A DNA stretch of 64,000 nucleotides from Escherichia coli (lineage in GTDB: Bacteria; Pseudomonadota; Gammaproteobacteria; Enterobacterales; Enterobacteriaceae), in the NCBI RefSeq assembly GCF_003334405.1, contig NZ_QOWM01000002.1; one strand, written 5' to 3'. Positions 10,101-46,100 of the stretch are shown in pieces; the first letter of the stretch is position 1, and each line of letters starts with the position of its first letter. The position numbers are program-made.

Positions 10101-13100
10101 CGTTGCCCGTGACGATCTCCCGGAAGGCGTTTATAACGAGCAGTTCAAAAAATGGGACCTCGGCGACATCCTCGGCGCGAAAGGTAAGCTGTTCAAAACC
10201 AAAACCGGCGAACTGTCTATCCACTGCACCGAGTTGCGTCTGCTGACCAAAGCACTGCGTCCGCTGCCGGATAAATTCCACGGCTTGCAGGATCAGGAAG
10301 CGCGCTATCGTCAGCGTTATCTCGATCTCATCTCCAACGATGAATCCCGCAACACCTTTAAAGTGCGCTCGCAGATCCTCTCTGGTATTCGCCAGTTCAT
10401 GGTGAACCGCGGCTTTATGGAAGTTGAAACGCCGATGATGCAGGTGATCCCTGGCGGTGCCGCTGCGCGTCCGTTTATCACCCACCATAACGCGCTGGAT
10501 CTCGACATGTACCTGCGTATCGCGCCGGAACTGTACCTCAAGCGTCTGGTGGTTGGTGGCTTCGAGCGTGTATTCGAAATCAACCGTAACTTCCGTAACG
10601 AAGGTATTTCCGTACGTCATAACCCAGAGTTCACCATGATGGAACTCTACATGGCTTACGCAGATTACAAAGATCTGATCGAGCTGACCGAATCGCTGTT
10701 CCGTACTCTGGCACAGGATATTCTCGGTAAGACGGAAGTGACCTACGGCGACGTGACGCTGGACTTCGGTAAACCGTTCGAAAAACTGACCATGCGTGAA
10801 GCGATCAAGAAATATCGCCCGGAAACCGACATGGCGGATCTGGACAACTTCGACTCTGCGAAAGCAATTGCTGAATCTATCGGCATCCACGTTGAGAAGA
10901 GCTGGGGTCTGGGCCGTATCGTTACCGAGATCTTCGAAGAAGTGGCAGAAGCACATCTGATTCAGCCGACCTTCATTACTGAATATCCGGCAGAAGTTTC
11001 TCCGCTGGCGCGTCGTAACGACGTTAACCCGGAAATCACAGACCGCTTTGAGTTCTTCATTGGTGGTCGTGAAATCGGTAACGGCTTTAGCGAGCTGAAT
11101 GACGCGGAAGATCAGGCGCAACGCTTCCTGGATCAGGTTGCCGCGAAAGACGCAGGTGACGACGAAGCGATGTTCTACGATGAAGATTACGTCACCGCAC
11201 TGGAACATGGCTTACCGCCGACAGCAGGTCTGGGAATTGGTATCGACCGTATGGTAATGCTGTTCACCAACAGCCATACCATCCGCGACGTTATTCTGTT
11301 CCCGGCGATGCGTCCGGTAAAATAAGCATTACGTTATGCTCACAACCCCGGCAAATGTCGGGGTTTTTTTATTTAAGCTGGGTAAATGCAGATAATCGTT
11401 TTCTGGCTTCGCGATTTGTCGCCTGCATCACCATCCACGGACTGAACGCCCACGGCGTGGCATCAATACCGTGTAATACATCTGCTAAATCACACCATTG
11501 ATAATCCATCACTTCATCATCATTGATCTGTAACGCACTAGTGGTGCGTGCGGCAAATACCGGACACACTTCATTTTCCACAATGCCACTCGGATCGGTG
11601 GCGCGGTAGCGAAAGTCAGGATAGATAGATTCAGGAGGCGTAATTTCCACGCCAAGCTCATAACGGCAACGGCGGATCACTGCGTCTTCGTTGCTTTCTC
11701 CCAGTTGTGGGTGCCCACAAACCGAGTTAGTCCACACGCCAGGCCATGCTTTTTTGCTCAGTGCGCGGCGGGTAACTAATAATTGTCCTTTGGCATTAAA
11801 CAGCCAACTGGAGAACGCGAGATGTAAGCGGGTGTCTGCCGTGTGTGCGGCATACTTTTCCAGCGTACCCGTGGGAACTCCCTGTGCATTCAATAAAATG
11901 ACGTGTTCCGTTTGCATAATTTCTCACATGTAATTCTGATCACTCATCATTATAGATAATTGAAGAGTGAAATGATTAACCAAGTGAGCGTTTATCGACA
12001 ACCGCCCGTTTTGAGCGGATGCCGACAGGTAAAAACCATTTAAAAAAGTAGCATCATATATTTGAAGCGACTTTCAATGGCCATTGCAACACAGTCAGAA
12101 ATGACAGGAATAGAGAGAGTAAAAAGCAACAACAGACTGAATATAGCGCGCATTAAAAAATTCATATTATTCTCCATGCTCATTTTTCTTCAGCTTGCGC
12201 ATCAGAAGCCACATACGTACTGTCCTGACTTTTAAATCTTTATCAGAGACGGATTCCTTCACCAGGTCAGCATGATGCTGATAGCCATTAAAGAAGACGT
12301 TCAGCACAACGGCGCTAAGGGTTGCGAGCATAATGCCGCTATGTAGCAGCGGTTGCAGTACGGCCGGTAACTTAGAAAAGAAATCGTGAGAGAGCGTCGG
12401 AGTCATGCCAACGCCGAGACTGATCGCCACAATATAGAGGTTGTAACGGTTGGTGGTGTAGTTACAGCGCGACAGAATTCGAATCCCTGTCGCCAGTACC
12501 ATGCCGAACATCACTAGACCAGCGCCGCCCAGCACAAATTGCGGAATGGAGGCTACCAGCACCGCCATTTTTGGCACCATGCCAAACAGGATTAATATAA
12601 TTCCCGAAGAAATACACACCCAGCGGCTATGAACGCGCGTCACGCTAACCAGGCCAACGTTTTGAGAAAATGACGTGTGGGGGAAGCTGTTAAACGTGCC
12701 GCCTATCATTGTCCCTACGCCATCGACACGCAGCCCGCGAATAATATCGTGCGAAGAGAGTTTACGACCGACTATTTCACCCAGTGCCAGGAACATCCCC
12801 ATCGACTCGATAAACACGATGATTAACACGGCAGTCATGGTCAGAATGGAAACGGGATCGAAAATCGGCATACCAAACGACATCGGCGTAACAATCGCAA
12901 ACCATGAAGCATCATGTAGCCCGGATAAATTGACTTCATTCATCATCCACGAAAGTAAAAAGCCAAATACAATCCCCAGTAATACGGCGACGTTGGACAT
13001 AAATCCTTTCGCATAGCGAGTAATGAGCAAGATAAAAATTAAGACGGCAAAGGAGATACCTAAATAAACGGGATTACCATATTGCGGATTCCCTTTACCT

Positions 13101-43100: not shown

Positions 43101-46100
43101 CGGGATCGAACGGCGTAACGTCGGTATCTTGAGTTGAAATAACGCGAACGTCGCTGACCGGAACCCCCACGGTTTCTGCCACCATTTGCGAGAAGACGGT
43201 GTCGGCACCCTGACCGATTTCCGTCGCGCCGCTTTGCACGTTGATGGTTCCATCCTGATTCATCAGAAGGCGCGCGCCTGCTATTTCTACGCCGACAGGC
43301 CAGGTGTTAGAGGTGTAGCTAAAACAGGCGACGCCAACGCCGCGGCGCAAATTGCCTTGCTGGTTCTGGCATTCTGCACGGCGTTTTTCCCATTCAAAGA
43401 TTTTCCGGCCTTTTTCAAGACACTCCGGCAACCCTGCGCTGTAAATACGTTTGCCCGTGAGCGGATTAGCATCTCCTTCGCGGGCGGCGTTGCGTAAACG
43501 AATTTCAACAGGATCAATACCTAACGCTGTCGCGGCGTCATCAAGCATAGACTCAACGGCAAATACGACTTGTGGCGCGCCATAACCACGCATCGCACCA
43601 GCCGAGGGGAGGTTGGTATAGCAGGTCTTTGAACTGTAAGCGTAGGCACAACGAGGATAAAGGTAAGCGACTTTATTCCCCCCCGCAGAAGCGATGGAGT
43701 GCCCGTGAGATGCATAAGCGCCGGTGTTAGACAGAACATCCAGACTATAACCTTTCAATGTTCCGTCGCGGTTCACGCCCATTTGCCCGTCAATGGTAAA
43801 AGCGTGGCGGGTACGGGTTGCGAGGAAACACTCTTCACGGCTAAGGGAAACTTTCACCGGAATGCCGCCAAGCTTGCTGGTCAGGAATGCCGCCATTGGC
43901 TCTTCCAGTACATCCTGTTTATTACCAAAACCGCCACCGACAAATGGTTTGATGACTCGTACGCATGACCAGGGAATATCCAGCGCCTGACCAACCACGC
44001 GGCGAACAATGTGCGGGATCTGGGTGCTGGAAACGATGGTAATTCGCGAGTCATCCTCCATCCACGCCAGCGATGTTACGCTTTCCATGTGACAATGTTG
44101 AATAACGGGGGTCTGATAGTGCCCCTGTACCTGGTAGTCGGCGGCATCGATTGTTTGTTGGACATTACCCGTCGACATCGTGCTTTGTTTCAGTAAATTG
44201 CCACCGTTATGGATTGGTGCAGCGTCTTCTGCCAGCGCCGCTTCTGGCGTGGTGATAACGGGTAATTCTTGCCACTCAATGCTGACCAATTGCGCCGCTT
44301 TTTCTGCCGTGAGTTCATCGCGGGCCACGACGATGGCAACGGCGTCACCATGATGACGAACATGGCGAGTTAGCAGTGCGCGATCGGCGGTATCGCGCTT
44401 GTTTTCGTCAAGTGTCCAGGCATGCCCAGCTGTAGCGAATGGAATATCAGGCACATCTTCCCAGGTAAAAATCGCCAGTACGCCCGGCAAACTTCTGGCT
44501 TGTTCATCATTAATACTTACGGCATAACCATGTGCGATAGGGCTACGTACATATTTCGCATAACACATGCCCGCCATAACATAATCGTCAGTATATCGTG
44601 CCCGCCCGGTGACCTTAGCAATGGCATCGACGCGCATGCATGATTCACCCGTAGCGGTTGCTTCCCGCGCTTCCATAGAAATCCCCTCGATTTGAACATT
44701 TGGTTCTTATGGCAAAGATTTAGTCTAAGCAGGCAAGATTTACGCCAGAAACGACGATAAGCGTTAGGGGAGGTAGGAAGTGTGATGACGTTAAAAAAAC
44801 ACAGATATGATACGAAACAGGACTCTGAATAGGGGCAGTGATACGTATCAATATGAGTGGCGATAAAATCAATGTGATAAATTGGGATTATTACGCATCA
44901 GGATGGGAAATAGGGTAAAAAGTCAGGAAGTTCGATACCTCTACAGCGAATATTTTGCTGATGATACTTCCCTTTGCCAAATGAAATTAACCTCTTTCTC
45001 TATTACCACGTTTTTCCAGAAGCAAGAGATTGGGTATCAAGAGGCTGGCTGCTATGATAAGGCGTCTTGTTTTTTAAGCGAGGAAAGATTTTGAGTGCGG
45101 GACGCCTGAATAAAAAATCTCTGGGTATCGTGATGTTGTTATCGGTTGGACTGCTTTTGGCGGGCTGTTCGGGTAGCAAATCATCCGATACAGGAACGTA
45201 TTCCGGCTCCGTTTACACCGTGAAACGGGGGGATACGCTATATCGTATTTCGCGCACCACGGGAACCAGCGTAAAAGAACTGGCGCGACTGAACGGCATT
45301 TCCCCCCCTTACACCATTGAAGTTGGTCAGAAACTAAAACTGGGTGGGGCGAAAAGTAGCAGTATTACACGTAAATCAACCGCCAAATCAACGACCAAAA
45401 CCGCATCGGTTACACCGTCATCAGCGGTACCGAAATCATCCTGGCCGCCAGTAGGGCAACGTTGTTGGTTATGGCCAACGACAGGGAAAGTTATCATGCC
45501 GTATTCGACAGCAGATGGCGGCAATAAAGGGATTGATATCTCAGCTCCACGGGGTACACCTATTTACGCCGCGGGTGCAGGAAAGGTGGTGTATGTGGGC
45601 AACCAGCTGCGTGGCTACGGTAATCTCATCATGATTAAACACAGTGAAGATTACATTACGGCTTACGCCCATAATGACACGATGCTGGTAAATAATGGGC
45701 AAAGCGTGAAGGTTGGGCAAAAAATCGCCACTATGGGGAGCACGGATGCGGCATCTGTTCGCCTGCATTTCCAGATTCGTTACCGTGCAACGGCAATTGA
45801 TCCGCTACGTTACTTGCCGCCTCAGGGCAGCAAGCCAAAATGCTGATGGCGAATTAATCAGCAGTCAGCAGCGTGGCACTTGCTAAGGAGAGCGTAAGGT
45901 TTATAATGCCTTACGCATCTCGAAGCGGGCGTAGTTCAATGGTAGAACGAGAGCTTCCCAAGCTCTATACGAGGGTTCGATTCCCTTCGCCCGCTCCAAT
46001 TTATCTTCGCCGTAATACTTCCCCATTTTGTTGTAAATAAAAAGCGTTTACGCAATGCAATCCTTTTGTAACAACCCAGGTAAAACACCTTATTTTCAAG

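Follow-up and report, generated by a model that had tools for sequence, protein, structure and literature searches.

The stretch of DNA analysed here, 64,000 nucleotides of the Escherichia coli contig NZ_QOWM01000002.1 (hereafter the window), very likely carries the E. coli chromosomal purine-utilisation cluster (ygeV–uacT, b2866–b2888 in K-12) with its layers of uptake, reductive urate degradation, cofactor and electron supply, and control. The cluster is already known. Since its significance has been recognized and its chemistry solved, the original prediction, which described a supercluster of about 32 kb for selenium-dependent molybdenum hydroxylases and purine salvage or catabolism, adds nothing new as stated. 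The one new item of our analysis is a candidate YgeV box, T(A/C)TCA-N3-TGATA, which would be a modest, directly testable regulatory prediction and a concrete handle on the YgeV operator. Humans have no uricase and release urate into the gut, where bacteria use the cluster to remove it, and an engineered E. coli Nissle that over-expresses the cluster lowers serum urate in mice (PMC12507026).

Gene identities were established from near-identity to K-12 and matches to curated family models, with a Pfam match in the case of GhxQ. Positions 1–49968 align one to one, base for base, with E. coli ML35 (NZ_CP025747.1) with 8 single nucleotide polymorphisms (SNPs), and positions 10482–46982 differ from K-12 MG1655 by 7 SNPs in 36.5 kb. 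The latter change three amino acids inside the cluster (K-12 residue second: A for E at residue 20 of YgfK, M for I at residue 142 of HyuA, T for A at residue 388 of YgeV) and one in the flanking actS. RefSeq annotation and a listing of open reading frames (ORFs) agree on 22 intact genes of expected length at 12167–44676, in the order uacT, ygfT, ygfS, ghxQ, guaD, xanQ, xdhD, ygfM, ssnA, ygfK, mocA, yqeC, yqeB, yqeA (arcC), hyuA, ygeY, dpaL (ygeX), ygeW, ygeV, xdhC, xdhB and xdhA; coding sequence accounts for 30351 of the 32510 bases (93%). All 22 genes named beforehand for 12167–44637 are thus present as RefSeq genes, ORFs and family-model matches, and their assignment to purine uptake, salvage and catabolism holds. 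In K-12, xdhA starts at the codon corresponding to position 44637, the start annotated by RefSeq PGAP lying 39 nt further upstream at 44676. Curated NCBIfam models were matched by 21 of the 22 proteins, for most of them gene-specific models and far above cut-off; for YgfS, XanQ and YgeV the match is to a wider family that agrees with the name of the gene, and GhxQ, which has no NCBIfam model, matches Pfam Xan_ur_permease (E 1.8e-80). Of 5426 complete E. coli genomes, 5156 cover each of the two halves of the cluster to at least 80%, and the GC content of the cluster, 48–53%, is core-like.

The reductive pathway would begin with the removal of the 6-oxo group of urate by XdhD–YgfM and NADH, giving 2,8-dioxopurine. 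XdhD (20796–23666, minus strand; TIGR03313, 2123 bits against a cut-off of 1102) is the Mo/Fe-S subunit of this urate reductase (2,8-dioxopurine dehydrogenase) and has a glutamate at residue 606, while YgfM (23663–24442, minus; TIGR03312, 490 bits against 242) is its FAD subunit. E. coli XdhD co-purified with YgfM converts urate to 2,8-dioxopurine ("yanthine") in the presence of NADH, and in vivo a ΔxdhD mutant builds up urate from xanthine and makes no 2,8-dioxopurine (Li et al., 2025, PMC12507026). In the second step the pyrimidine ring would be reduced by YgfK with NAD(P)H and at once hydrolysed by SsnA to yield ureidomethylhydantoin. YgfK (25824–28922, minus; TIGR03315, 1775 bits) is an Fe-S flavoprotein related to DPD and PydA and assigned to the reductive dearomatisation of 2,8-dioxopurine; the amidohydrolase SsnA (24493–25821, minus; TIGR03314, 738 bits), assigned to the opening of the pyrimidine ring of the reduced product, is encoded only 2 nt away. 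The coupled E. coli enzymes turn 2,8-dioxopurine into ureidomethylhydantoin, with 5-ureidodihydrouracil as a minor product, and a ΔygfK mutant does not make ureidomethylhydantoin in vivo (PMC12507026).

The enzymes of the later steps are encoded on one strand in an operon-like block with gaps of 47–57 nt, and all score above their NCBIfam cut-offs. The hydantoinase HyuA (33569–34954, minus; TIGR02033, 675 bits) would open the hydantoin, ureidomethylhydantoin or 5-ureidodihydrouracil, to 2,3-diureidopropionate, an activity assayed with the Clostridioides difficile orthologue (PMC12507026). One ureido group would then be phosphorolysed to carbamoyl phosphate by the knotted carbamoyltransferase YgeW (37530–38717, minus; NF005538, 825 bits), and the carbamate kinase YqeA (32589–33521, minus; TIGR00746, 386 bits) would use carbamoyl phosphate and ADP to give ATP, CO2 and NH3. 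The other ureido group would be hydrolysed by YgeY, an M20 hydrolase (35007–36218, minus; TIGR03526, 722 bits), and the resulting 2,3-diaminopropionate would be split to pyruvate and 2 NH3 by YgeX (DpaL), a pyridoxal phosphate-dependent 2,3-diaminopropionate ammonia-lyase (36276–37472, minus; TIGR03528, 651 bits). In vitro, YgeW with phosphate strips one ureido group, and pyruvate is formed from the product by the coupled E. coli YgeY and YgeX (PMC12507026). The same pathway was reached in Clostridium sporogenes by Liu et al. (2025, bioRxiv 10.1101/2025.04.24.650524), who also observed ATP formation from 2,3-diureidopropionate by E. coli YgeW and YqeA, as expected from the anaerobic route from urate through carbamoyl phosphate to ATP that had been suggested from gene content. 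From the individual steps we infer a net conversion of urate and 2 NAD(P)H to pyruvate, 2 CO2, 4 NH3 and 1 ATP.

Uptake is assigned to three permeases, urate entering via UacT, xanthine via XanQ, and guanine and hypoxanthine via GhxQ. UacT (YgfU) is a urate:H+ symporter of the NCS2 family (12167–13615, minus; TIGR03173, 509.8 bits, cut-off 414), XanQ a xanthine:H+ symporter (19231–20631, minus; RefSeq and an NCS2 superfamily model, 455 bits) and GhxQ a guanine/hypoxanthine permease (16494–17861, minus; RefSeq and Pfam Xan_ur_permease). The guanine deaminase GuaD (17897–19213, minus; NF006679, 738 bits; TIGR02967, 634 bits) would turn guanine into xanthine, and XdhABC would interconvert xanthine and urate. 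The subunits of this xanthine dehydrogenase are XdhC (2Fe-2S; 41014–41493, minus; NF007387, 342 bits), XdhB (FAD; 41490–42368, minus; NF007427, 534 bits) and XdhA (Mo; 42379–44676, minus; NF007426, 1486 bits), and E. coli lacking xdhA no longer consumes xanthine (Li et al., 2025, PMC12507026). Xanthine had been offered as an alternative to urate at the start of the route. It is not the substrate of ring opening, since xanthine enters only after its oxidation to urate by XdhABC, and it is urate that is converted to 2,8-dioxopurine.

Uptake and funnelling, the urate pathway and the σ54 sites described below have been shown in the literature, mostly with the same proteins and sequences and for a few steps with clostridial orthologues. 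The proteins encoded here can be expected to have these activities, which were published mostly for identical or near-identical K-12 proteins. The original prediction held that the biochemistry of the pathway as a whole was undefined and that several enzymes had unknown substrates, and both statements have been overtaken: the pathway was worked out in 2023–2025 and reconstituted largely with E. coli proteins, and substrates are now assigned for XdhD–YgfM, YgfK, SsnA, HyuA, YgeW, YgeY, YgeX and YqeA. The proposed checks (deletion mutants, metabolomics, selenium and molybdenum dependence, co-expression) have largely been carried out in published work. RefSeq names lag behind this biochemistry, YgfK being listed as a "putative selenate reductase subunit", HyuA as "D-phenylhydantoinase" and K-12 YqeA as a "putative amino acid kinase".

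The control layer centres on YgeV (IsrR), a σ54 enhancer-binding protein encoded at 39196–40974 on the plus strand. A Pfam domain search revealed a weak GAF-like region, a PAS domain, an AAA+ domain (Sigma54_activat, E 2.8e-70) and a Fis-type helix-turn-helix (HTH_8, E 3e-13), and no receiver domain. Chromatin immunoprecipitation sequencing (ChIP-seq) has placed σ54 upstream of xdhA, ygeW, ygfK and ygfT (Bonocora, 2015), and all four reported 17-mers are found verbatim in the window, on the correct strand just upstream of their genes: CTGGCGTAAATCTTGCC for xdhABC (44732–44748, minus), CTGGCACACTTATTGTT for ygeW-ygeX-ygeY, perhaps extending to hyuA and yqeA (38811–38827, minus), GTGGTGCGATTGTTGCT for ygfK-ssnA-ygfM-xdhD (28995–29011, minus) and TATGCCCGTTTATTGCA, a weak match, for ygfT (13988–14004, plus). 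The site between ygeV and ygeW was also detected by genomic systematic evolution of ligands by exponential enrichment. A σ54 consensus scan of the window gave 46 matches against 40 expected, which is no enrichment over chance; as the scan is uninformative, the weight rests on the ChIP-seq motifs. It did point to a weak, unreported site upstream of uacT, CTGGCACTCCACGAGCA (13684–13700, minus), which is kept as a candidate only since it scores 10.3 bits with our position weight matrix (PWM), about rank 32 in the window. Strong σ54-like −24/−12 matches also occur within ssnA (CTGGCACGACTGGCGCA, 25067–25083, minus) and ygeW (37804–37820, minus), the one in ssnA scoring higher with the PWM than any other in the window; intragenic σ54 sites are common in E. 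coli (Bonocora, 2015).

In the PRECISE-1K compendium, the YgeV iModulon comprises 13 of the 22 cluster genes (xdhABC, ygeWXY, hyuA, ygfK, ssnA, ygfM, xdhD, ygfT and uacT) together with ybiY outside the cluster, and ygfT expression is reported there, second-hand, to be reduced in a ygeV mutant. YgeV together with CRP would drive at least the four σ54 promoters of xdhA, ygeW, ygfK and ygfT. A perfect CRP consensus, TGTGAATGAACTCACA, is present upstream of PygfK at 29074–29089 and a site with one mismatch upstream of PygeW at 38870–38885, and a native Crp site in the ygeV–ygeW spacer has been mentioned (PMC12507026). These boxes fit the reported repression of urate degradation by glucose (PMC12507026).

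The iModulon omits xanQ-guaD-ghxQ, mocA, yqeB, yqeC, yqeA and ygfS, and ygeV itself is unlisted. On the basis of these omissions and of a terminator-like hairpin after xdhD, the 32 kb is not one transcriptional unit; the co-regulation first proposed for the whole supercluster is supported in part, for the 13 iModulon genes. It is even possible, if somewhat doubtful, that the region is a neighbourhood of separately controlled modules in which only the catabolic operons form the YgeV/σ54 regulon, the salvage and uptake genes xanQ-guaD-ghxQ (perhaps with xdhABC) and the housekeeping genes mocA and yqeBC being adjacent by chance. Besides the eight missing genes, a hairpin with a T-run that separates xdhD from xanQ fits such an arrangement, as does the mocA–yqeC spacer, in which there is neither a σ54 ChIP-seq site nor a YgeV box; MocA, moreover, serves other enzymes whose molybdenum cofactor carries a cytidine dinucleotide (MCD). 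XdhA was assigned to salvage by Xi et al. (2000), as cited by Li et al. (PMC12507026). On the other side, xdhABC is in the iModulon, with its own σ54 promoter and two box-like sites, and XdhABC and XdhD act in sequence, the ΔxdhD mutant piling up urate from xanthine (PMC12507026). Compact clusters in Buttiauxella and in the loci L086 and L090 retain mocA and a yqeB-like gene, and according to the cited literature the clostridial DioR regulon takes in yqeB, yqeC, ygfJ (mocA) and a purine permease.

In the whole window there are just three copies of the 12-mer CTCATATTGATA, each upstream of a σ54 promoter, namely PygfT (facing uacT), PygeW (facing ygeV) and PxdhA; simple arithmetic gives a chance expectation of about 0.008 exact copies. 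In an unbiased word search it was the longest word present in at least three of the four promoter regions, at 12 nt, whereas 300 dinucleotide shuffles gave no such word longer than 10 nt, and the 9-mer ATATTGATA is common to all four regions (shuffle maximum 8). Footprinting within E. coli was uninformative, since no genome with the ygeW–ygeV spacer falls below 96.4% identity there. On a contig that encodes a 66%-identical YgeV fragment (L083), TATCATATTGATA lies at the same distance from the gene start, in a spacer that has diverged elsewhere but is most strongly conserved at this block. From this conservation and from the perfect palindrome TATCATAATGATA, which precedes PygfK, we derived the refined form T(A/C)TCA-N3-TGATA, a 13-bp near-palindrome. 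A simpler palindrome, TGATA-NN-TATCA, was also enriched, yet it explains fewer sites and was set aside. A second fragment, "57% identical" to YgeV (P0121, from Logan contig SRR17348396), was discarded as an artefact, being E. coli DNA in which every G is read as A, as would be expected of bisulfite-type converted reads; such assemblies put false divergent homologues into protein databases.

In the window, the refined pattern has four mismatch-free sites against 0.28 expected, three of them in σ54 promoter regions. These are TCTCATATTGATA between the divergent uacT and ygfT (13810–13822, plus), a second TCTCATATTGATA in the divergent ygeW/ygeV region (39028–39040, plus; the block conserved in L083) and the palindrome TATCATAATGATA about 175 bp upstream of PygfK (29180–29192), with the CRP consensus between it and the promoter. 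Copies with one mismatch are found in the ygeW/ygeV spacer (39126–39138) and, twice, 100–125 bp upstream of PxdhA (44846–44858 and 44867–44879, minus), the first of the two overlapping an FNR-like sequence, TTGATACGTATCAC, that matches 9 of 10 positions of the FNR consensus. Overall, boxes lie 100–210 bp upstream of the xdhA, ygeW, ygfK and ygfT σ54 promoters. The fourth perfect copy, TATCAAGATGATA, is inside the dpaL (ygeX) coding sequence (37184–37196), and could be due to chance or be an internal regulatory site.

The box was also sought in loci with more distant YgeV orthologues. The YgeV of Buttiauxella selenatireducens is 53% identical to that of E. coli with an identical HTH recognition segment, and its locus has two sites against 0.07 expected, in the divergent ygeW/ygeV and xdh/ygfT spacers. 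The pattern had been refined on part of the data; the loci L086, L088, L089 and L090, fetched after it had been fixed, all carry the box, solely in such spacers, and in L090 it lies in the mocA–ygfK spacer as in E. coli. Taken together, six orthologous loci (56 kb) contain 9 sites against 0.16 expected, and when only intergenic sequence was shuffled (the orthologous loci plus the four promoter regions of the window) the figures were 12 sites against 0.05. We therefore consider it reasonably probable that T(A/C)TCA-N3-TGATA is the operator (enhancer) of YgeV at the four promoters and at the candidate uacT promoter, and that it follows ygeV orthologues into Buttiauxella and further loci of enterobacterial and metagenomic origin. 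According to this proposal, YgeV would bind a conserved 13-bp box upstream of each σ54 promoter. We found no description of a box motif, YgeV operator or YgeV ligand in the searchable literature. If the proposal is true, the box places the formate-linked YgfT–YgfS module in the urate-pathway regulon in at least three lineages, and together with the CRP boxes it provides a complete wiring diagram for urate-inducible, glucose-repressed expression, which would help to engineer uricolytic probiotics that keep the native promoter.

We also considered whether the shared element instead binds FNR, a global nucleoid protein or some other repressor, or is left over from a duplication of promoter regions, which seems unlikely. 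The overlap of the xdhA copy with the 9/10 FNR match would suit an anaerobic pathway, the element is AT-rich, and one perfect copy lies within the dpaL coding sequence. By inspection, however, the ygeW and ygfT copies match the FNR consensus at only 6 of 10 positions. The enrichment survives the dinucleotide-preserving intergenic shuffles (12 against 0.05), and the element tracks ygeV orthologues into loci with a different gene order, the HTH recognition segment being identical between E. coli and Buttiauxella. Moreover, 100–210 bp upstream of the −24 element is a typical distance for enhancer-binding proteins, and ybiY and aegA are without the element. FNR, IHF and CRP were rejected as the factor behind the shared motif, as the fit to FNR is confined to the xdhA copy and the CRP boxes are separate elements.

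The cofactor layer comprises mocA, yqeC and yqeB. MocA (29244–29822, minus; TIGR03310, 214 bits), a molybdenum cofactor cytidylyltransferase, would supply the MCD form of the cofactor. YqeC (29925–30695, plus; TIGR03172, 241 bits) is a marker of the selenium-cofactor trait, and YqeB (30743–32368, plus; TIGR03309, 417 bits) is an XdhC/CoxI-like maturation factor with a YqeB-specific C-terminal domain; both would mark the trait of a labile, non-selenocysteine selenium cofactor. Here these markers of the selenium-dependent molybdenum hydroxylase trait lie beside molybdenum hydroxylase genes; none of the ORFs in the cluster requires an in-frame TGA, and selD is outside the window. In C. sporogenes, urate reductase and xanthine dehydrogenase require selenophosphate synthetase, selenium and molybdenum (10.1101/2025.04.24.650524). 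In C. difficile, SelD and YqeB are required on xanthine and urate, ΔyqeB behaving like ΔselD, and no phenotype was detected for ΔyqeC (Johnstone and Self, 2024). The description of the cluster as selenium-dependent is therefore sound for the clostridial enzymes and overstated for E. coli, where we infer the dependence only from the presence of yqeB and yqeC and from family names. If E. coli XdhD and XdhABC do need a labile selenium cofactor, E. coli would be a tractable organism in which to study this trait, the least understood of those involving selenium, and the roles of YqeB and YqeC.

Selenium might also be thought of as a substrate rather than a cofactor, with YgfK, YgfM and XdhD (formerly YgfN) forming a selenate reductase, as the RefSeq name of YgfK and the NCBIfam model names Se_ygfK, Se_sel_red_Mo and Se_sel_red_FAD imply and as an older genetic report that reportedly tied the operon to selenate reduction would have it. 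This is highly improbable and already largely refuted, the selenate-reductase label in RefSeq and NCBIfam being contradicted by biochemistry: purified XdhD–YgfM reduces urate to 2,8-dioxopurine, which YgfK and SsnA convert onward, ΔxdhD and ΔygfK block exactly those steps in vivo (PMC12507026), and in clostridia selenium is needed as an enzyme cofactor (10.1101/2025.04.24.650524). The selenium family names, for their part, presumably stem from genomic co-occurrence with SelD.

The electron-supply genes are ygfT and ygfS, whose stop and start codons overlap by 1 nt. YgfT, a "formate-dependent uric acid utilization protein" (14051–15970, plus; NF009451, 1506 bits, cut-off 1154), is a fusion of a HydN-like 4Fe-4S ferredoxin domain (residues 1–157) to a GltD-like NAD(P)H/FAD domain (171–635). 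YgfS (15970–16458, plus) is a HydN-type 4Fe-4S ferredoxin whose best matches are HydN and the N-terminal domains of AegA and YgfT, and both proteins belong to the published HydN/YsaA/AegA paralogue group. Iwadate and Kato (2019), as cited by others, tied ygfT and aegA to formate-dependent urate use and proposed that formate dehydrogenase electrons pass to NADP+ or urate; urate induces expression of ygfK and ygfT, according to a citing paper. YgfT–YgfS would most likely pass formate electrons to the NAD(P)H pool or straight to the reductases. In Buttiauxella and L086, ygfT-ygfS also lie beside xdh and share a box-containing spacer with it, a conserved arrangement that supports their membership of the pathway.

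Several points weigh against parts of the picture developed above. In addition to the genes omitted from the YgeV iModulon, the ygfT σ54 site scores just 3.6 bits with our PWM, and neither ybiY nor aegA has a box at up to one mismatch. YgeV was named IsrR in a paper that describes it as an indole-induced virulence regulator and "orphan response regulator", a label that does not fit a protein in which the receiver domain is absent. In the searchable literature we found no selenium-dependence data for the E. coli enzymes. A two-hybrid test of AegA against FDH-H was negative, which weakens a direct formate link for the YgfT family. Finally, the two 2025 papers differ on which ureido group YgeW removes, its product being 3-ureido-2-aminopropionate according to Li et al. 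(PMC12507026) and 3-amino-2-ureidopropanoate according to Liu et al. (10.1101/2025.04.24.650524).

Comparison with known systems places the cluster closest to that of K-12 MG1655 (Li et al., 2025), which has the same genes, order and σ54 motifs and the same XdhD Glu606, and differs by the substitutions in YgfK, HyuA and YgeV. The 2,8-dioxopurine clusters of C. sporogenes and C. difficile share the chemistry, homologous SsnA, HyuA, YgeY and YgeX, linked YqeB/YqeC and σ54 control by a YgeV-like activator, "DioR". In C. difficile, however, the molybdenum enzyme shares only about 26% identity with E. coli XdhD and is without the FAD subunit YgfM; a PydA-like UacX replaces YgfK, and the hydrolase UacY replaces YgeW/YqeA, so that this step yields no ATP. 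The electron donor there is likely ferredoxin, whereas it is NADH in E. coli, and selenium dependence, proven in clostridia, is in E. coli suggested by the markers. With reductive pyrimidine degradation (PydA, PydB, PydC) the pathway shares ring reduction with NAD(P)H by a DPD-like Fe-S flavoprotein, then ring opening by a cyclic amidohydrolase and ureido removal; here, a bicyclic purine first loses its 6-oxo group, both of its rings and two ureido groups are processed, and one of these groups is kept in the form of carbamoyl phosphate. Phosphorolysis of a ureido group to carbamoyl phosphate and substrate-level ATP formation by carbamate kinase recall the arginine deiminase pathway, although YgeW is a knotted carbamoyltransferase that acts on 2,3-diureidopropionate and not on citrulline. 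The clostridial "xanthinase" pathway (Rabinowitz) likewise degrades purines independently of O2 and uses a xanthine dehydrogenase-type enzyme to reduce urate, but it leads from urate to xanthine, hydrolytic cleavage and glycine, whereas here urate is converted to the isomer 2,8-dioxopurine and the route ends in pyruvate.

Linkage of YgeV orthologues to the same genes extends to Buttiauxella, metagenome loci and Firmicutes. A search of genome contigs with full-length YgeV was dominated by generic AAA+ matches and returned no close orthologue; it did reveal YgeV-like regulators adjoining ygeW, ygeY, dpaL, ygfK or ssnA homologues in two Firmicutes. A search for homologous proteins gave only E. 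coli variants of 99–100% identity. In Citrobacter werkmanii, a YgeV-like activator that is 38% identical over its full length lies beside dpaL- and ygeY-like genes only, and this locus may represent a distinct module, controlled by a related regulator, for the use of diaminopropionate or ureido amino acids.

Other elements in the cluster include two PurR-operator-like sequences, AGCCAAACGTTTTCGT in the ygeW/ygeV spacer (38918–38933, minus) and AAGCAACCGTTTACGT in the uacT/ygfT spacer (13647–13662, plus), which are the only ones in the window at up to three mismatches. A 2015 computational study listed ygeW in a putative PurR regulon, and the sites could mean that urate catabolism is subject to hypoxanthine- or guanine-dependent repression. 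A terminator-like hairpin lies between the convergent ygfS and ghxQ (16465–16488, minus), and the hairpin between xdhD and xanQ, GC-rich and followed by its T-run, is at 20771–20786. GC-rich hairpins resembling repetitive extragenic palindromic (REP) elements occupy the convergent yqeB/yqeA (32377–32402) and ygeV/xdhC (40984–41007) gaps, where they probably act as bidirectional terminators. Positions 32167–44700 contain at least one dispersed repeat, since as a query they matched a median of 22 places per genome. Within the cluster, a scan against Rfam gave no match to an RNA family.

An intact cluster is absent in about 5% of complete E. coli genomes. In strain LR-24 (NZ_AP027494.1), a deletion of about 25 kb flanked by insertion sequence (IS) 1 runs from the middle of uacT to the ygeW–ygeV spacer, so that ygeV and xdhABC remain, and strain EC24 has an IS1 within the ygeW–ygeV spacer. 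At the SNP at position 41408, the window has the K-12 allele and an intact xdhC; in ML35, the closest complete genome, the gene has an internal stop and is annotated as a pseudogene.

Beyond xdhA, to the right of the tRNA-Gly gene glyU (45925–45998), lies the ETT2 type III secretion island (window 45925–64000) with a low GC content of 33–36% and frameshifted or partial genes, among them ygeH (a HilA-like regulator), yqeI and LuxR-type regulators. The island is more complete here than in K-12, where IS2 and large deletions occur. Beyond 55606 the window departs from ML35, which has an IS5-family element and a truncated permease gene, and the last 8.6 kb reach at least 80% coverage in only 3464 of 5426 genomes. 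At the other end of the cluster, directly downstream of uacT (11972–12165), yqfH (23 aa, plus) overlaps yqfG (41 aa, minus), and the latter may be co-transcribed with uacT, as the end of yqfG is 1 nt from the uacT stop codon. Far outside the cluster, 2510–2587 (minus) matches the Rfam family naRNA4, a REP-derived nucleoid-associated RNA, with 75 bits against a gathering score of 59.5.

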